This document shows positions 8,411 to 38,537 of a stretch of DNA of 47,003 nt, piece after piece. This DNA comes from Patescibacteria group bacterium (GTDB lineage: Bacteria; Patescibacteriota; Minisyncoccia; Phycocordibacterales; Phycocordibacteraceae): NCBI GenBank assembly GCA_018970425.1, contig JAGWWK010000001.1, positions 1 to 47,003 of the forward strand, written 5' to 3'. The stretch's first letter is position 1. Every line of letters begins with the position of its first letter. The notes below the pieces were generated by a model. That model saw only the letters and a program-made list of their open reading frames with translations. It did not search any database and was not told the origin of the DNA. The position numbers were made by a program, and so were the translations under genes.

Positions 8411-8436
8411 AAAAACCCCATCTGCTTGGGGTTTTT
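8411..8436 (+). terminator. Rho-independent terminator-like hairpin after tRNA-Lys
   Basis: aaaaacccca-tctgc-ttggggttttt. Confidence 0.6.
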
Positions 8437-8444
8437 GTATACAA

Positions 8445-8550
8445 GTCCGAGGCGGAGCGCTGTTTTGCGTCTCGCAAAACCGCGAGCCGGGGTCGCGAAA
8501 CCGACGAACGCAGGTGAGGAGGTATTTGTGACGACGCGTCCGAGGCGGAG
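8445..8550 (+). repeat. tRNA 3'-flank module (E-family, Lys/Leu subtype) bounded by 13-nt direct repeats gtccgaggcggag
   Basis: Direct repeats at 8445-8457 and 8538-8550 (aagtccgaggcgga loosely resembles the tRNA-Lys 3' end aagtgggcgga). Inside are hairpin gttttgcg-tct-cgcaaaac, ggggtcgcgaaacc, and a loop gacgaacgcaggtga related to GAACGAAGGTGA of the other modules. Confidence 0.5.
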
Positions 8551-18138: not shown

Positions 18139-18215
18139 CCGAGAGAGGGTCGTAGACAACTCGCTTGTATACGACCGAACGAGACGCGCGGGCAAGGCTT
18201 CCTTACCCGGCGCAC
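18129..18215 (+). repeat. Short tRNA 3'-flank module (E-family) bounded by 11-nt direct repeats of the tRNA-Tyr 3' end
   Basis: acccggcgcac at 18129-18139 (inside the tRNA) and 18205-18215. Between them are hairpin ggtcgta-N13-tacgacc and gaacgagacgcgcgggcaag, which resembles the cgcgggcgag end of the Trp/Val modules. Confidence 0.5.
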
Positions 18216-18229
18216 AGGACGAGAGATTT

Positions 18230-18255
18230 GGTCTCCTACGGAGGCCTTTTCTTTT
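18230..18255 (+). terminator. Rho-independent terminator
   Basis: ggtctcc-tac-ggaggcc followed by ttttctttt. Confidence 0.65.
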
Positions 18256-18301: not shown

Positions 18302-18457
18302 ATGTCGCAAGATAATCTTCTGAGACTCAAGTCGCCGTCGGGAACGATGGTTTATACTCGCAAGAACAAGAAAAAGCTTGCGAACGTCAAGCTCTCTCTC
18401 AAAAAGTTTGATAAAAAGTTGAGAAAACGTGCTGTCTTTAAAGAGGTCAAAAAGTAA
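18302..18457 (+). CDS. rpmG: 50S ribosomal protein L33 (51 aa; below the ORF-track cutoff)
   Basis: Hand translation: MSQDNLLRLKSPSGTMVYTRKNKKKLANVKLSLKKFDKKLRKRAVFKEVKK. It matches the L33 pattern (YxTxKNKR...L.LKKFDP..R.H..FKE.K). Confidence 0.8.
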   Translation: MSQDNLLRLKSPSGTMVYTRKNKKKLANVKLSLKKFDKKLRKRAVFKEVKK

Positions 18458-18463
18458 GGCATA

Positions 18464-18485
18464 ATGACCCCATCGGGGTCATTTT
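18464..18485 (+). terminator. Rho-independent terminator after rpmG
   Basis: atgacccc-atc-ggggtcat followed by tttt. Confidence 0.7.
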
Positions 18486-18495
18486 GATTACCGAA

Positions 18496-18641
18496 GGGCC
18501 TATAAGCAAAGCTTCTAGGCCCGGCACTCGGACGCCATAAGTGCAAGCACTCGCGGCGCTCCTCGTTAGGGCCTATAAGCAAAGCTTCTAGGCCCGTCAC
18601 TCGGACACCATGAGTGCAAGCACTCGCGGCGCTCCTCGTTA
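18496..18641 (+). repeat. Two tandem 73-nt tRNA 5'-flank modules (U-family): tRNA-Trp acceptor-stem minihelix mimic plus conserved 45-nt hairpin
   Basis: Units 18496-18568 and 18569-18641 are 70/73 identical. Each begins gggcctata (the first 9 nt of tRNA-Trp) and folds gggccta-t-aagc-aaa-gctt-c-taggccc-g. Then follows ctcggacgcc..gagtgcaagcactc..ggcgctcc. Confidence 0.85.
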
Positions 18642-18712
18642 GGGCCTATAGTTCAATGGTAGAACGACGGTCTCCAAAACCGTTAATCCAGGTTCGAGTC
18701 CTGGTGGGCCCG
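18642..18712 (+). tRNA. tRNA-Trp (anticodon CCA)
   Basis: gggccta/tgggccc acceptor, anticodon loop ctccaaa, T arm ccaggttcgagtcctgg, discriminator G. Confidence 0.9.
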
Positions 18713-18973
18713 CAGATGCGAAGCATCGAGAGGACTCGAACGCTGAGCGGTGCGAGTCGCTGCGACGAGCCGCGAAGCGGTGCCCAGCAGGTACCCGAAC
18801 GAAGGTGAGGGAACCTGCGCGGGCGAGGACTACGTGGGCTCCGAGATGCGAAGCATCGAGAGGACTCGAACGCTGAGCGGTGCGAGTCGCTGCGACGAGC
18901 CGCGAAGCGGTGCCCAGCAGGTACCCGAACGAAGGTGAGGGAACCTGCGCGGGCGAGTCCTGGTGGGCCCGCA
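18699..18973 (+). repeat. Two identical 113-nt tRNA 3'-flank modules (E-family) in tandem (130-nt period), interleaved with copies of the tRNA-Trp 3' end
   Basis: E copies at 18715-18827 and 18845-18957 are identical. tcctggtgggcccgca occurs at 18699-18714 (in the tRNA) and 18958-18973; a degenerate copy gactacgtgggctccga lies at 18828-18844. Confidence 0.85.
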
Positions 18974-21683: not shown

Positions 21684-21875
21684 GTGCCGGGAGAGAGACT
21701 CGGTCACAACTCGAATACTCACCTTCGTTCGTATTCGGTCGCGACCCCAGCTCGGGCACGCTCGAGACGAGCGGCATAGCGCCCTCCGCTTTTCTCGTCT
21801 CATTCCGGCAATGACAAAGCAAAACCGAAGCAGTGCTTCGGTATTTGATAGTCATAGTGCCGGGAGAGAGACTCG
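21684..21875 (-). repeat. tRNA 3'-flank module (E-family, Lys/Leu subtype, 154 nt) bounded by 19-nt direct repeats of the tRNA-Leu(CAA) 3' end
   Basis: gtgccgggagagagactcg at 21684-21702 and 21857-21875. On the tRNA strand the insert contains gcgtgcccgag, ggggtcgcgacc and hairpin gaatac-GAACGAAGGTGA-gtattc (plus-strand 21713-21736). Confidence 0.75.
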
Positions 21876-34335: not shown

Positions 34336-34408
34336 GAGTGAGGAGCGCCGCGAGTGCTTGCACTCATGGCGTCCGAGCGATGGACCCGCACTGTTTCAGT
34401 TTGGGCCT
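34336..34408 (-). repeat. Single 73-nt tRNA 5'-flank module (U-family, Ala type) abutting tRNA-Ala(UGC)
   Basis: The reverse complement is 72/73 identical to the units at 36741-36886 (aggcccaaactgaaacagtgcgggtcca + tcgctcggacgccatgagtgcaagcactcgcggcgctcctcactc). Confidence 0.85.
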
Positions 34409-34895: not shown

Positions 34896-35288
34896 ATGTT
34901 CGCTCTGAGCGCTTTTCTGACGAGTGTCATGATTATAGTATTGGTTGATTATGCATGGTATTCACTTACGCGGAAGCATTTTTACGGCGTGATCAGCGGG
35001 CTTAAAGATCGCGTCGGACTACCAGGCCTCGTGAGTGCGTACGCCGCGCTAATAGCCGGACTCTTATTTTATGCGACGCTTCCTGCGCTCGCGGGAGGGA
35101 GCGTTTGGTACGCGCTTGTCCTGGGCGCCTTATATGGAGTTGTTGTATACGGTATCCATGCCGGGGCAGGGTATGCGCTCATGCGAGGTGTACCATTGCG
35201 GGTTGCAGTCGCCGAGTTTGCGCACGGAGTAATCCTCATGAGTTTGGCGTGTATGTTCGCGTATCTCGTTGGAAGCGCGCTAGTTTAA
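34896..35288 (+). CDS. DUF2177-like integral membrane protein
   Basis: ORF 34830 trimmed to ATG 34896, which lies 7 nt downstream of a tgaTACACT box. Four hydrophobic helices. Confidence 0.5.
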   Translation: MFALSAFLTSVMIIVLVDYAWYSLTRKHFYGVISGLKDRVGLPGLVSAYAALIAGLLFYATLPALAGGSVWYALVLGALYGVVVYGIHAGAGYALMRGVPLRVAVAEFAHGVILMSLACMFAYLVGSALV

Positions 35289-35306
35289 AATACAGCGCTC
35301 ATGCGC

Positions 35307-35312
35307 TAGAAT
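35307..35312 (+). promoter_or_regulatory. -10-like hexamer TAGAAT, 8 nt upstream of tRNA-Val +1
   Basis: tagaat 35307-35312, tRNA starts at 35321. Confidence 0.4.
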
Positions 35313-35320
35313 AGCCACAC

Positions 35321-35397
35321 GGGCGGCTAGCTCAGCTGGTTAGAGCGCACGCTTCACACGCGTGAGGTCACAGGTTCGATTCCTGTGCTGCCCACCA
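35321..35397 (+). tRNA. tRNA-Val (anticodon CAC), CCA encoded
   Basis: gggcggc/gctgccc acceptor, anticodon loop ttcacac, T arm acaggttcgattcctgt. Confidence 0.9.
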
Positions 35398-35601
35398 AGT
35401 ATCGCCTGATACTTGGGGCAGCAGCACGCACTGCGTGCGGCAGGAATCGAACGCCGGAGCGATGTGTGATGTTTCATCACACCGCGAGGCGGTGCCCAGG
35501 CCAAGTCCGACCGAAGGGGAGGACGAGAGCCGCGGGCGACTTCCTGTGCTGCCCACCAAGTATCGCCTGATACTTGGGGCAGCAGCACGCACTGCGTGCG
35601 G
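35380..35601 (+). repeat. tRNA 3'-flank module (E-family, 100 nt) bounded by 61-nt direct repeats (last 18 nt of tRNA-Val plus a 43-nt two-hairpin trailer)
   Basis: Direct repeats at 35380-35440 and 35541-35601 are identical. The insert 35441-35540 shares cgaacgc-gagcg, ccgcgaggcggtgcccag, hairpin gtcc-GACCGAAGGGGA-ggac and cgcgggcgac with the Trp module. Confidence 0.85.
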
Positions 35602-35752
35602 TTTGGGGAGAATTTCTTGGTCGGGCCGTAAGCACTTCGTGCTTTCTTCCAGCGCTCGCTCGGAAATATAAAAAAATTTCTATTTCCCTCGCTCGCTCGG
35701 AAGTAGTACAGTAGTACGTGCGGTTTGGGGAGAATTTCTTGGTCGGGCCGTA
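35596..35752 (+). repeat. 35-nt direct repeat (26-nt leader plus the first 9 nt of tRNA-Pro) with a 122-nt period
   Basis: gtgcggtttggggagaatttcttggtcgggccgta at 35596-35630 and 35718-35752. The first copy continues into hairpin agcac-ttc-gtgct and an AT-rich inverted repeat ggaaata..tatttcc. Confidence 0.8.
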
Positions 35753-35817
35753 GTATACCGGTAGTACGTGCGCTTCGGGTGCGTAAAGACTGGGTTCGAT
35801 TCCCAGCGGCCCGACCA
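35744..35817 (+). tRNA. tRNA-Pro (anticodon CGG), CCA encoded
   Basis: cgggccg/cggcccg acceptor, anticodon loop ttcgggt, T arm ctgggttcgattcccag. Confidence 0.9.
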
Positions 35818-35977
35818 AGAAATGCTCCGAGTGTCTGGTAGACACTCGTGGTCGCAGTGCGAGTAAAGACTGGGTTCGATTCCCAGCGGCCCGACCAAGA
35901 AATGCTCCGAGTGTCTGGTAGACACTCGTGGTCGCAGTGCGAGTAAAGACTGGGTTCGATTCCCAGCGGCCCCACCA
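35818..35977 (+). repeat. Two tandem 80-nt units: a 46-nt hairpin spacer plus a copy of the 3' 34 nt of tRNA-Pro(CGG), from the variable region to CCA
   Basis: Units at 35818-35897 and 35898-35977. The spacer agaaatgctccgagtgtctggtagacactcgtggtcgcagtgcgag contains an 8-bp hairpin cgagtgtc/gacactcg. The last copy has cggccccacca instead of cggcccgacca. Confidence 0.85.
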
Positions 35978-36010
35978 AAATGCTATTTTCTAGCTAGAAG
36001 ACAAGCGTCC

Positions 36011-36146
36011 GTCCCATCGTTTCGGGAAGGATTCACGCCAGCGTGGTATCCTCTCCCTACACTCGGGCCGTAAGCCTGGCTTCCGTCCCATCGTTCCGGG
36101 AAGGATTCACGCCAGCGTGGTATCCTCTCCCTACACTCGGGCCGTA
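36011..36146 (+). repeat. 62-nt direct repeat (74-nt period) containing a -10-like box, a leader, and the first 9 nt of tRNA-Pro(GGG)
   Basis: gtcccatcgtt(t/c)cgggaaggattcacgccagcgtggtatcctctccctacactcgggccgta at 36011-36072 and 36085-36146 (61/62 identical). tggtatcct boxes at 36044-36052 and 36118-36126. Confidence 0.85.
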
Positions 36147-36740: not shown

Positions 36741-36886
36741 GGGCCCAAACTGAAACAGTGCGGGTCCATCGCTCGGACGCCATGAGTGCAAGCACTCGCG
36801 GCGCTCCTCACTCGGGCCCAAACTGAAACAGTGCGGGTCCATCGCTCGGACGCCATGAGTGCAAGCACTCGCGGCGCTCCTCACTC
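36741..36886 (+). repeat. Two identical tandem 73-nt tRNA 5'-flank modules (U-family, Ala type): tRNA-Ala acceptor minihelix mimic (G3:U70 kept) plus conserved 45-nt hairpin
   Basis: Units at 36741-36813 and 36814-36886: gggccc-aaa-ctg-aaa-cag-tgc-gggtcc-a, then tcgctcggacgccatgagtgcaagcactcgcggcgctcctcactc. They abut tRNA-Ala(GGC). Confidence 0.88.
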
Positions 36887-36962
36887 GGGCCCTTAGCTTA
36901 GCTGGTAGAGCGCTTCCATGGCATGGAAGAGGTCAGGAGTTCGAGTCTCCTAGGGTCCACCA
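36887..36962 (+). tRNA. tRNA-Ala (anticodon GGC), G3:U70, CCA encoded
   Basis: gggccct/agggtcc acceptor, anticodon loop atggcat, T arm aggagttcgagtctcct. Confidence 0.9.
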
Positions 36963-37005
36963 AAGTTTATTTACAGAGGAATTAGCCTCGCTCGGTATTG
37001 AAGAC

Positions 37006-37482
37006 GTGCTTATTGCGTTTGCAATAGGTGGCATAACCGCTGCTATGTACAGCGTAGTGTCTCCGGTGCGCGAGCGCCTCGAGCGCAGCGGCATAGGGGT
37101 GCTTCTTGCTTGTGCATATGGTATTGGTATCGTGATTCTATACGGCGGTTTTTATCTGCTTAACTTGTCATCAGTATTAGTCGCATTTGTGACACTCGCC
37201 GTTTTTGCTTTTGTGCCGCTCATAATTAAGCCCTGGGATCTTAAGGGAGCACTGCTGACCGGACTCATGTTTGGTGGGTTTTTATTCTTTTTTGAAATGG
37301 TGTTTTTCCTAGCATACCCGGGGATCGTTGACGCATGGTGGTTTGGTGCCACATGGGGGCGGGTACTAGGGGTACCTTATGAGGAAATCATATGGGGATT
37401 CTTGTGGGGGGTCGCGGGCGCATCAGGAACCGAGCTTGTGCTGCGATTGAGATTGCGCCGTCTACCGAGGGCTACTACTTAG
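37006..37482 (+). CDS. Hypothetical polytopic membrane protein (start uncertain: GTG 37006 or ATG 37045)
   Basis: ORF 36859 trimmed because its 5' part overlaps the U modules and tRNA-Ala. Five or six hydrophobic helices. The GVPYEEIIWGFLWG motif is faintly lycopene-cyclase-domain-like. Confidence 0.45.
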   Translation: MLIAFAIGGITAAMYSVVSPVRERLERSGIGVLLACAYGIGIVILYGGFYLLNLSSVLVAFVTLAVFAFVPLIIKPWDLKGALLTGLMFGGFLFFFEMVFFLAYPGIVDAWWFGATWGRVLGVPYEEIIWGFLWGVAGASGTELVLRLRLRRLPRATT

Positions 37483-37762
37483 GAGCATCAAGCTTTTCGA
37501 GCCCGAGCTGCTTGAATACGACGTATATAACGCCGGCAATAATAAGAAAATCGACGAGTGTGGCAATAAAGGCACCATAGTTTATGCCCAGATAGGCGAG
37601 ACCCTTGAGTCCCTCGGTGGAGCCAAGGATGAGGGCTAGAGCGGGCATGATGATGTCGTTTACTAACGAGGCAACGACCTTACCGACTGCACCTCCTAAA
37701 ATAAAGCCGATCGCGAGTCCAACCACCCCTTGCTGGCGAACAAATTGAATGAAATTTTGCAT
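37475..37762 (-). CDS. mscL: Large-conductance mechanosensitive channel
   Basis: ORF trimmed to MQNFIQFVRQQGVVGLAIGFILGGAVGKVVASLVNDIIMP (typical MscL N-terminus). A tgcTAAACT box lies 8 nt upstream. Confidence 0.88.
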   Translation of the reverse strand: MQNFIQFVRQQGVVGLAIGFILGGAVGKVVASLVNDIIMPALALILGSTEGLKGLAYLGINYGAFIATLVDFLIIAGVIYVVFKQLGLEKLDAPK

Positions 37763-37784
37763 ATAGGCACAGTTTAGCAGTGCG

Positions 37785-37793
37785 TGATAGAGT
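37785..37793 (+). promoter_or_regulatory. Extended -10-like box tgaTAGAGT, 6 nt upstream of the atpB ATG
   Basis: tagagt 37788-37793, ATG 37800. Confidence 0.45.
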
Positions 37794-37799
37794 AGGGGA

Positions 37800-38537
37800 A
37801 TGGCAGCTGAAGCTGGCGGCATTCATATTGCATTTGCGCCGTACGTACTCGGCAATGTCGGCTCTTTTCCGATAACCGCAACGCTCGTTACCTCCTGGGT
37901 CGTTGTCGGCCTCCTTGTGGTGTGGGCATTTTTCTTTGCCCGATCCCTTAAAATGACACCCGGCCGAGGACAGGTTTTGGTTGAAACGACTATCGGGTTT
38001 GCCTATGACTACGTAAAAGAAGTGCTTGAGGACGAGAAGCTCGCTCGGCGCTACTTCCCGTTCATCATGACCATTTTTGTATTTATTGCGGCGGCCAACC
38101 TGTTCGGTCTTTTACCGTTTACGGGTCACGCGCTCACATTCCACGATACGCCGCTTTTCTACCCCGTAAATACCGACCTCAACATGACGCTGGCGATGGC
38201 GGTAGTTGCTGTGCTCGTGATCGAATTTGCGGGCATCGCGGCACTCGGTGTGTTGAAGTACGGCTCAAAATTTGTTAATTTTCACTCGGTCGTCGGATTT
38301 TGCATCGGCATCATTGAATTGATTTCCGAGCTTGCCCGTTTGATCACGTTTTCGTTCCGCCTCTTTGGCAATATCTTTGCCGGAAAGGTGCTCATACTTG
38401 TCGCCCTCTACTTCCTTCCGTACTTCTTACCGGTACCGTTACTGGTATATGAAGTGGCGGTAGGAATTATCCAGGGCGCAGTGTTCGCATTATTGACACT
38501 GTTCTTTATTAAAATTGCGGTCACAGAGCCGCACTAA
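37800..38537 (+). CDS. atpB: F0F1 ATP synthase subunit a
   Basis: Conserved Arg helix ITFSFRLFGNIFAG; first gene of the atp operon. Confidence 0.9.
   Translation: MAAEAGGIHIAFAPYVLGNVGSFPITATLVTSWVVVGLLVVWAFFFARSLKMTPGRGQVLVETTIGFAYDYVKEVLEDEKLARRYFPFIMTIFVFIAAANLFGLLPFTGHALTFHDTPLFYPVNTDLNMTLAMAVVAVLVIEFAGIAALGVLKYGSKFVNFHSVVGFCIGIIELISELARLITFSFRLFGNIFAGKVLILVALYFLPYFLPVPLLVYEVAVGIIQGAVFALLTLFFIKIAVTEPH

Follow-up and report, generated by a model that had tools for sequence, protein, structure and literature searches.

Small structured non-coding elements 3′ of tRNA and tmRNA genes in CPR bacteria form a large, uncatalogued family, possibly mobile through the T loop

What is the short module that follows the tRNA-Val(CAC) gene of a Patescibacteria chromosome, and does the antisense tRNA segment inside it carry information about its host gene? 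The stretch of DNA in which it lies (47,003 nt of contig JAGWWK010000001.1; hereafter the window) is ordinary chromosome, encoding gyrA, clpB, topA, infB, relA/spoT, serS and ATP synthase, and contains 13 genuine tRNA genes (15 calls by ARAGORN, 14 by Rfam). ARAGORN reports a false tRNA-Ala here. Among the 25 of 45 window protein families listed, none is a recombinase, transposase or reverse transcriptase (RT), and a search for protein-database relatives of the DUF2177 neighbour of the locus found none.

The initial annotation described the module as a 100-nt insert between exact direct repeats of 61 nt. The two repeat copies are indeed 100% identical, each comprising the last 18 nt of tRNA-Val(CAC) and a 43-nt trailer (Table 1), and the insert (35441-35540) does open with CAGGAATCGAAC, the exact reverse complement of GTTCGATTCCTG (35374-35385). 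Its exact limits, by contrast, are ambiguous inside the repeat, because every circular permutation of the 161-nt unit yields an identical sequence. Searching the window for T-arm antisense with at most one mismatch returned 4 matches against 0.21 expected, and 4 or more were reached in none of 100 shuffles. The T arm is not the full extent of the antisense: the trailer adds GGGGCAGCAG, antisense to the acceptor 3′ strand, so that the antisense spans most of the tRNA tail. A hairpin (hp2) stands between GGGGCAGCAG and CAGGAA; its counterpart in relatives is a positionally conserved hairpin with an AGCGAG...CTCGCG-type foot, present also at the orthologous-type tRNA-Val of locus L218. Folded as RNA, the insert and the first nucleotides of repeat copy 2 form a three-way junction closed by CAGGAA/UUCCUG, in which the latter pair with 35441-35446. 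A scan of the window found no terminator between tRNA-Val and the module, nor before the next tRNAs, and the module is, judged from its sequence, probably co-transcribed with tRNA-Val.

Table 1. Coordinates of the Val module and of the further family copies in the window
Feature	Position	Strand	Evidence
Promoter-like TTTAAA-17-TAGAAT before tRNA-Val	35284-35312		sequence
tRNA-Val(CAC), intact, host gene of the module	35321..35397	+	ARAGORN; Rfam tRNA 67.5 bits
Repeat copy 1: tRNA nt 59-76 (TTCCTGTGCTGCCCACCA) and 43-nt trailer	35380..35440	+	100% identical to 35541-35601
Trailer hairpin hp1, CCAAGTATC-GCCT-GATACTTGG; encoded CCA within the 5′ arm	35395..35416	+	sequence, fold
Distal antisense arm GGGGCAGCAG, complementing tRNA-Val acceptor 3′ strand TGCTGCCC	35415..35424	+	sequence; pairs with tRNA 3′ end in fold
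Hairpin hp2, GCACGC-ACT-GCGTGC, between antisense arms at acceptor/T-stem boundary	35424..35438	+	sequence, fold
Proximal antisense arm and TCGAAC, exact reverse complement of tRNA-Val nt 53-64	35441..35452	+	antisense search
Conserved core, three-way junction	35447..35539	+	covariance-model match 35437-35550, 94.8 bits, E=3.5e-23; covariation; fold
Core helix P2	35452-35492; apical hairpin 35464-35482	+	
Core helix P3	35494-35537; apical hairpin 35505-35524	+	
Core end GGGCGA, then additional C	C at 35540	+	
Repeat copy 2: orphan tRNA nt 59-76 and trailer, then tRNA-Pro leader	35541..35601	+	repeat analysis
Degenerate family member between tRNA-Lys and tRNA-Leu(TAA)	8436..8544	+	25.2 bits, E=7.8e-5
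Two tandem family copies 3′ of tRNA-Trp	18726..18966 (18726-18836, 18856-18966)	+	72.1 and 78.2 bits; repeat analysis
Degenerate family member 3′ of tRNA-Leu(CAA), then 19-nt tRNA 3′-end copy	21690..21806	-	22.4 bits, E=4.4e-4; sequence

Relatives were gathered by two exact-pattern scans with the conserved blocks, one of species-representative genomes and one of metagenomes. The genomes contained 13 true homologues amid many chance matches, all 13 in CPR MAGs (Parcubacteria/Paceibacterota, Saccharibacteria, Uhrbacteria and Nomurabacteria), while the metagenomes returned at least 120 loci, nearly all of them true members. A covariance model made from 117 cores of unrelated metagenomic copies found at least 153 copies in CPR and metagenome loci, against a single weak match in a non-CPR control of 760 kb of loci matching the seed pattern by chance. 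Its matches in the window number five: the Val module, two at tRNA-Trp and two degenerate ones. The block-by-block similarity that had been noted between the Val and Trp modules is thus real, one model scoring all three copies highly (Table 1); in the Trp tandem, the middle repeat is degenerate and the last intact. Further kinds of partial tRNA duplication are also present in the window. Among the loci searched, the family is found only in CPR/Patescibacteria DNA, and no copies were found on viral contigs, for which reason a phage-borne attP was discarded as an identity for the module.

A same-strand tRNA gene lies less than 450 nt upstream in 91 of 133 unique copies among the matches listed, representing 35 isoacceptor types, and tmRNA is the upstream gene in 3 copies (L146, L217 and L227); copies without an upstream tRNA are mostly at contig edges. 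The 150 ORFs flanking copies include no recurrent recombinase, integrase, transposase or reverse transcriptase, the neighbours being ordinary genes, and we accordingly dropped the idea of an adjacent enzyme gene. Scanning the whole window at Rfam gathering thresholds returned tRNAs only (14), and a permissive scan of 35300-35650 (E≤10) returned tRNA-Val and noise, with no match to riboswitches, small self-cleaving ribozymes, RNAs of omega/HEARO type, Y RNA or tmRNA. As both scans were empty for them, hammerhead, twister, HDV, hatchet and pistol ribozymes and omega-RNA were rejected as candidates. Full-text literature searches and Rfam 15 contained no prior description of the element. Small, structured and non-coding, these elements 3′ of tRNA and tmRNA genes form a large family that is uncatalogued.

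From 5′ to 3′, the unit consists of the tRNA, a trailer, the antisense arm, TCGAAC, P2, GAGGCGGUGCCCAG, P3, CG(C/A)GGG(C/A)GA and a direct tRNA copy from nt 59; it is about 160-250 nt long and contains no genes. The trailer measures 25-170 nt and usually holds a long hairpin, which is terminator-like under a strict rule (hairpin plus T-run) in 27% of copies, compared with 4% in the background; about 70% have no strict terminator. The core of about 92 nt is a three-way junction with double changes at 19 of 26 predicted pairs and a covariation score of 0.432 (0.157 after shuffling of columns, about 0.09 with slid partners). Its conserved nucleotides concentrate at the junction. More than 150 loci from several CPR classes share this core, with junction nucleotides that do not vary and with compensatory changes, which indicates that the unit is under purifying selection. 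In the inner helices, G-U pairs outnumber A-C pairs by 69 to 22, and the tRNA-sense (+) strand folds better in 94 of 97 cores, with a mean gain of 6.1 kcal/mol. This strand specificity suggests that the active form is a single strand of tRNA polarity; RNA and ssDNA fit the data alike, and we cannot say which it is. A gene on the minus strand, encoding a tRNA-3′-half-like RNA ending at a bidirectional terminator, was rejected on the same two measures (94/97 and a G-U:A-C ratio of 3:1). Compensatory changes and strand-specific stability, the generic marks of a structured RNA, are present in the core and absent from the arm helix. The loops of hp2 (CUGC) and P2 (GCAG) could form a kissing pair, and the DNA mini-hairpin GCGAAGC may be enriched.

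The antisense arm had been read as a sign that the module holds sequence specific to its host tRNA. Using 85 independent copies from CPR genomes and metagenomes with a called upstream tRNA, we compared the 7 nt beside TCGAAC with tRNA nt 59-65 and found a mean of 1.25 mismatches to the adjacent tRNA, compared with 3.29 ± 0.11 to shuffled tRNAs, a value that none of 2,000 permutations reached. Because the signal is present both in loop positions 59-60 (0.08 versus 0.81 mismatches, adjacent versus shuffled) and in the stem, generic T-arm conservation does not explain it, and the proposal is supported across the family. The window alone, on the other hand, hardly discriminates, the Val arm matching tRNA-Val at 12 of 12 positions and tRNA-Trp and tRNA-Pro(GGG) at 11 of 12.

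The antisense arm complements tRNA nt 53-65 and often extends further, to nt 66-8x, split by a conserved hairpin. In about 30 of the 85 copies it is bipartite, with a distal block against nt 65/66 to 76...82 that includes the gene-specific trailer, then the hairpin (foot AGCGAG...CTCGCG, often with a CUGC loop) and finally the block against nt 59-65. The hairpin falls exactly at the acceptor/T-stem boundary. Arm pairs show no wobble excess (44 versus 38 and 29 versus 28). Of the antisense positions that face a difference between tRNA and downstream copy, 33 follow the tRNA and 6 the copy. The antisense also reproduces gene-encoded trailers, not CCA. The arms behave like plain Watson-Crick (DNA-type) copies, not like a selected RNA helix.

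The downstream copy matches the tail of the adjacent tRNA at all 16 of 16 positions in 34 of 85 cases and at 13 or more in 57. Among these 57 well-matching copies, 41 start exactly at nt 59, and the end is usually at nt 73-77. Repeat length ranges from 15 to 61 nt, the longer repeats measuring 21-61 nt, with the side between nt 58 and 59 fixed and the other end variable. The 61-nt repeat at Val is unusually long for a family in which the repeat normally ends at the tRNA 3′ end: it overruns the tRNA by 43 nt, and the repeats of L193, L190, L198 and L196 do so by 6-28 nt. In 12 of 15 cases a better tRNA is formed with the upstream copy than with the downstream one, which decays, and 30-45% of downstream copies are decayed or displaced. 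Comparing CCA between copies revealed gain in 3 of 29 cases and loss in 4 of 8, with no directional signal; since the antisense also copies gene trailers, an origin of the copies from mature tRNA was rejected. Tandem arrays are found at the Trp locus of the window and in L183, L184 and L234.

Similarity between cores does not follow tRNA type. For 50 of 53 cores, the nearest neighbour belongs to a different tRNA type, and close cores occur at unlike tRNAs (Glu-CTC and Ala-CGC, 95%; Leu-TAA and Ser-GCT, 94%). Core identity of same-genome pairs ranges from 52% to 87%, so that concerted evolution as the sole cause of similar cores is only partly supported, and we set it aside. When distant relatives with the element at one tRNA type are compared, trailer and core are conserved jointly (identity 0.73-0.96), while the leader and right flank are unrelated. 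L218, whose array matches that of the window in gene order (Ala-Val(CAC)-Pro-Pro), carries at its tRNA-Val the same adaptor (distal antisense, hairpin and GGCAGGAA-TCGAA) but a core of another family, and L047 is a hybrid of both core families. The elements are therefore mosaic.

Presence and absence could be compared at the syntenic lepA-ftsB-tRNA-Gly(CCC)-tRNA-Thr locus of L184. Two tandem units occupy the tRNA-Gly(CCC) locus in L184, L252 and L253, which represent one Hainich groundwater population, whereas the covariance model (E≤1, filters off) detected no element in 11 loci from relatives with FtsB 82-87% identical. Because these close relatives include two (L257 and L258) in which the tRNA-Gly is 100% identical to that of L184 and the element is absent, we conclude that the element is an insertion. 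In L250, L251 and L254-L256, the tRNA abuts directly the same small gene (ATGAAAAATTC...) that follows the last repeat in L184, which indicates that the trailer hairpin belongs to the insertion. L184 has 22 extra nt between the last repeat and the native flank.

The reading that we favour, with a probability of roughly 0.45, is that the Val module represents a small, non-coding, non-autonomous mobile element that targets the 3′ part of CPR tRNA and tmRNA genes and integrates at the T loop by way of a folded single strand. For a short time the unit would be single-stranded, folded and of tRNA polarity, most probably as a small circle of ssDNA, and its sense and antisense arms would pair and so rebuild the T-stem/acceptor duplex of the target. 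This duplex would offer a hairpin recombination site beside a protein-binding core, and the core would bind a trans-acting recombinase, conceivably a tyrosine recombinase or an enzyme of HUH/Y1 type. Campbell-style integration at the T loop, with a putative crossover at or just before the junction of A58 and N59, would leave the upstream tRNA intact and duplicate its tail downstream. Tandem arrays could then arise by repeated integration or by unequal crossing-over between repeats, and old copies would decay. The element would consist of two modules, an arm module (tRNA tail, trailer hairpin and antisense) and a core module (the three-way junction), and the shuffling of cores between arm modules through the conserved blocks may create new tRNA specificities. 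As no recombinase, transposase or RT recurs beside the copies, the enzyme is purely hypothetical.

Such a mechanism accounts for repeats that start at a fixed point and mostly stop at the tRNA 3′ end, for tmRNA as a target, and for the hairpin carried by the element, the decay of orphan copies, the mosaicism and the strand bias. The repeat from nt 59 to the 3′ end corresponds to the identity block expected of a T-loop att site. Several observations speak against it. Conservative integration at the T loop needs an incoming unit that already carries the right tRNA tail, and near-identical cores with different arms are explained only by the assumed module exchange, which the 7-nt specific arm between the conserved hp2 and the core makes awkward. 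Repeats that run past the tRNA, such as the 61 nt at Val, look like local duplication and not like two independently derived tails, and the extra nucleotides in L184 are poorly accounted for. A bolder form of the idea, less probable than not but with a substantial chance of being true and then categorically new, is a self-retargeting element in which the core, as RNA or ssDNA, carries inverted and direct arms (nt 59 to the 3′ end) that are re-templated from each tRNA or tmRNA gene beside which it lands and that would serve as a rewritable guide for T-loop insertion by a trans-acting enzyme.

Since the module is probably co-transcribed with tRNA-Val, the strand asymmetry fits an RNA function equally well, and an RNA role is a serious rival to the mobile element, although we rate it as unlikely. 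The module would then be a functional RNA domain of the tRNA transcript, its mobility real but secondary. It might act as a switch controlling tRNA maturation under a ligand or protein, the antisense pairing either with the tRNA tail or with the downstream copy, where it would close P1 and free the tRNA. It might instead form a tRNA-like minihelix, with acceptor stem, central hairpin, T stem and a giant ‘T loop’, that matures into a stable small RNA through the action of RNase P, RNase Z and the CCA enzyme. Strong conservation of the core, with covariation and a bias to the tRNA-sense strand, is typical of RNAs, the gathering of conserved nucleotides at the junction is aptamer-like, and hp2 stands exactly where the tRNA body leaves the acceptor/T-stem stack. 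The promoter-like site before tRNA-Val, with no intervening terminator in the window, the roughly 70% of trailers that have no strict terminator and the few downstream copies that bear a CCA absent from the gene point the same way. Yet the closing helix is not kept by compensation, the antisense following the tRNA over the copy by 33 to 6 and showing no G-U excess, and the partner of the distal antisense is the real tRNA's trailer rather than the copy. Decay or displacement of 30-45% of downstream copies, the 27% of trailers with a hairpin and T-run that should end transcription before the module, and the failure of any Rfam riboswitch or ribozyme to match even at E≤10 also weigh against an RNA role.

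Less likely than an RNA role are a retro-type and a passive-scar origin, both of which we consider improbable. In the former, the RNA of a SINE-like element would be reverse-transcribed from a nick in the T loop, its antisense acting as a primer-binding site rewritten from the local tRNA in each cycle; priming at the nick would give target duplications of variable length starting at nt 59. One repeat boundary is in fact fixed (between nt 58 and 59) and the other variable (15 to 61 nt), retroviral primer-binding sites are complementary to exactly this 18-nt tail (nt 59-76), and strand asymmetry suits an RNA intermediate. Although 7 downstream copies have CCA where the gene has none, the antisense and most downstream copies show gene-encoded trailers (CA, CAG, CAATTAAAA...) in place of CCA, and gain (3/29) is balanced by loss (4/8). 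Ordinary target-primed reverse transcription makes no inverted copy of the target, and the ORFs flanking the copies include no RT gene. Alternatively, the modules could be by-products with no mobility or function of their own, either scars of larger integrative elements or phages that use the T loop or products of template-switching at quasi-palindromes around tRNA terminators. Long perfect palindromes centred on terminator-like hairpins do extend into the tRNA, the window holds several other partial tRNA duplications, and tRNA-fragment repeats are classic integration scars (PMC9897764). Scars would hardly share an architecture this uniform, without remnants of element genes, nor a core with invariant junction nucleotides and compensatory changes in so many loci and CPR classes, and L184, compared with its relatives, has gained a whole unit. 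A last rival, that the similarity is due to chance or that a metagenomic contig rich in repeats was misassembled, is effectively refuted. Logan contigs do break at these repeats, those encoding identical AtpB or DUF2177 proteins among them, but the two copies of the 61-nt repeat are identical, unrelated assemblies hold more than 150 homologous copies, and Logan contig L247, assembled independently from another sample and a separate sequencing run, is identical to the window through tRNA-Val, trailer and module start, which argues against an artefact at the tRNA-module junction.

How does the favoured mobile element compare with known systems? Elements that integrate into tRNA genes were reportedly divided by Williams in 2002 into classes according to sublocation within the gene. 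In mycobacteriophage Ms6, the attP core lies in tRNA-Ala T loops (PMC1762012). Like T-loop elements with a tyrosine integrase, the module keeps the tRNA intact, has a direct repeat from the T loop to the tRNA 3′ end, also targets tmRNA and holds its specificity in a short segment identical to the tRNA tail. Unlike them, it measures only 160-250 nt, with no integrase inside or adjacent, it contains the tRNA tail in inverted form as well, beside a strand-specific conserved three-way junction, and one core family serves at least 35 tRNA types. Integron attC sites and the attP(+) of CTX phage show how paired inverted segments within one strand can rebuild a duplex recombination site for an enzyme encoded elsewhere. 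The module resembles both in its pairing inverted segments, variable structured centre, strand asymmetry and non-coding nature, with a trans enzyme that in its case is hypothetical. It has no RYYYAAC/GTTRRRY boxes of the attC type, ending instead in N′N′TCGAAC and G(C/A)GA-NN, its paired arms are copies of tRNA genes, and it lies beside tRNA or tmRNA and housekeeping genes, not in cassette arrays or at dif or attI.

IS200/IS605 elements and their miniature derivatives have hairpin ends that act as single strands, insert 3′ of a fixed tetra- or pentanucleotide and contain an internal segment that pairs with the target, so that target choice is written in the element; non-autonomous copies exist. 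The module likewise has a fixed site, after TTCGA of the T loop, several hairpins and a target-pairing segment. However, insertion of these IS elements duplicates no target sequence and would interrupt the tRNA, whereas the module always has a direct repeat of 15-61 nt; their guide-target pairing covers 4-5 nt, compared with 11-30 nt in the module, no TnpA or TnpB lies near the module copies and no Rfam match of omega-RNA type was found. A classical MITE has terminal inverted repeats of its own, alike in all copies, and a short target duplication of constant length; in the module, the inverted arms vary from copy to copy and match the local tRNA, and repeat length is variable. The primer-binding site of retroviruses and LTR elements pairs with the final ~18 nt of one particular tRNA, has its boundary between A58 and N59 and can be re-templated by that tRNA. 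Complementarity to a specific tRNA tail and the same boundary recur in the module, whose antisense differs in copying the gene trailer and not CCA, in running through the T loop to G53 and in being split by a hairpin; no LTRs are present and no RT is nearby. With three-way-junction riboswitch aptamers the module has in common a conserved junction, variable covarying hairpins and a closing-helix strand with an alternative partner, but this partner is the tRNA body, P1 is not kept by compensation and no aptamer family matches. The module shares features with each of these systems and departs from every one in at least one defining feature, less clearly so from the IS200/IS605 miniatures. We place it among tRNA-targeting insertion elements, as one not previously described in the literature searched or in Rfam 15.

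If the favoured reading is true, CPR bacteria host an abundant mobile element that has no genes, targets the most conserved loop in biology and keeps the host tRNA intact, with target identity stored in two short arms beside a conserved structured core. It would be a miniature, possibly single-stranded, addition to the integrative elements that target tRNA genes, and would explain many of the ‘tRNA fragments’, assembly breaks and tRNA mis-annotations in CPR genomes. It would also point to an undiscovered recombinase or RNA-binding partner. Were the arms re-templated at each insertion, the element would represent a natural programmable insertion system of minimal size.

The elements of the E family, small non-coding modules directly 3' of tRNA and tmRNA genes in CPR bacteria, varied in both host gene and core. 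Three copies from CPR genomes and metagenomes lay behind tmRNA genes, and the arms of these elements were copies of the tmRNA 3' end. A second core family, opening with TCGAAG(Y)CCNATTGAGC or TCGAAGACCTTGCGAGC, carried the same antisense/hairpin adaptor and tRNA-tail copy as the E family, and in its L047 member a left block of the second family was joined to the middle and right blocks of the E family. Coordinates of these and the other features described here are collected in the table.

Features associated with the tRNA- and tmRNA-linked modules (L-numbers, loci from CPR genomes and metagenomes; D-numbers, repeat families within the window).
Feature	Location	Basis or position
Element 3' of tmRNA genes	L146 387-953; L217 889-1519; L227 1391-1935	
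Second core family	L218 12031-12200; L134 2991-3100; L159 ~880-960; L047 4465-4583	
5'-side module family	Window 18445-18651; 36763-36896; 34336-34400 (- strand)	Repeat family D1 and sequence
Short hairpin module behind tRNA-Tyr	Window 18141-18225	Sequence
Three repeats of the tRNA-Pro(CGG) 3' half	Window 35783-35978	Repeat families D2/D4
36-nt repeats flanking an insert	Window 35595-35752	Repeat families D10, D11
74-nt tandem	Window 35998-36145, 5' of tRNA-Pro(GGG)	Repeat family D5
Extra 22 nt (CCGGTTCAATAAGCTCACCACT)	L184 5301-5322	Between last tRNA-tail copy and native flank

The right end of the core also came in a variant form, in which an extra mini-hairpin (for example, UAAGCGUAAUCGCGG or CAAGCGAAGCGG) lies between GGGAGA and the 3' strand of the T-stem, with nt 59-60 replaced. 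This variant was seen at L130, L135, L145, L162, L167, L173, L186, L211, L218, L222, L225, L236 and L238. Several hairpins of the element family contain GCGAAGC, a DNA mini-hairpin of unusual stability.

Within the window, a second family of modules sits on the 5' side of tRNA-Trp, tRNA-Ala-GGC and tRNA-Ala-TGC. Here the duplicated part comprises the leader and ~9 nt from the start of the tRNA; the repeat is followed by the antisense of this leader/tRNA-start stretch (for example, gggcctata…ctaggccc) and then by a conserved block, CACTCGGACGCCATGAGTGCAAGCACTCGCGGCGCTCCTC, a mirror-image version of the 3' module's arrangement. The module behind tRNA-Tyr finishes in GCGCGGGCAAGG, after which 10 nt of the tRNA end (CCCGGCGCAC) are repeated, and it probably represents a truncated E-family relative; 3' of it lies a canonical terminator (18230-18246).

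Repeat analysis of the window revealed that partial tRNA duplications make a patchwork of the whole tRNA array at 35.3-37.0 kb. The repeated tRNA-Pro(CGG) segment runs from the anticodon stem/variable region to the CCA, with a 45-nt hairpin as spacer. The tRNA-Ala(CGC) reported by ARAGORN at 35823-35897, for which the Rfam scan of the window gave no call, is a miscall composed of one hairpin spacer and a tRNA-Pro(CGG) half. Each 36-nt repeat is made up of the final 7 nt of the hairpin in the Val trailer, then the leader and nt 1-9 of tRNA-Pro, and the 3' part of the insert between them is a degenerate tRNA-Pro 5' half.

Five copies (L122, L133, L153, L074 and L150) had no detectable tRNA. They share a conserved region of ~200 nt with a GGTTCG motif, ~250 nt upstream of the core, which matched no family in an Rfam search.

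At the Hainich groundwater locus L184, the extra 22 nt have no counterpart at the empty sites in relatives; in sequence, they look like the 3' end of a tRNA, shortened and with a terminal ACCA. Comparison of L058 with L220 revealed near-identity across the leader, tRNA-Gly(GCC), trailer, core and downstream copy, which stops directly 3' of that copy, the sequences beyond being unrelated. This break suggests that the orphan tRNA end was the exact site of a rearrangement or of a further insertion. Finally, L244, a contig from a strain encoding an identical AtpB protein, has one gene more than window 36990-37800, a bestrophin-like gene that separates the 207-aa membrane-protein ORF from mscL; this is strain-level variation in gene content adjoining the tRNA array.
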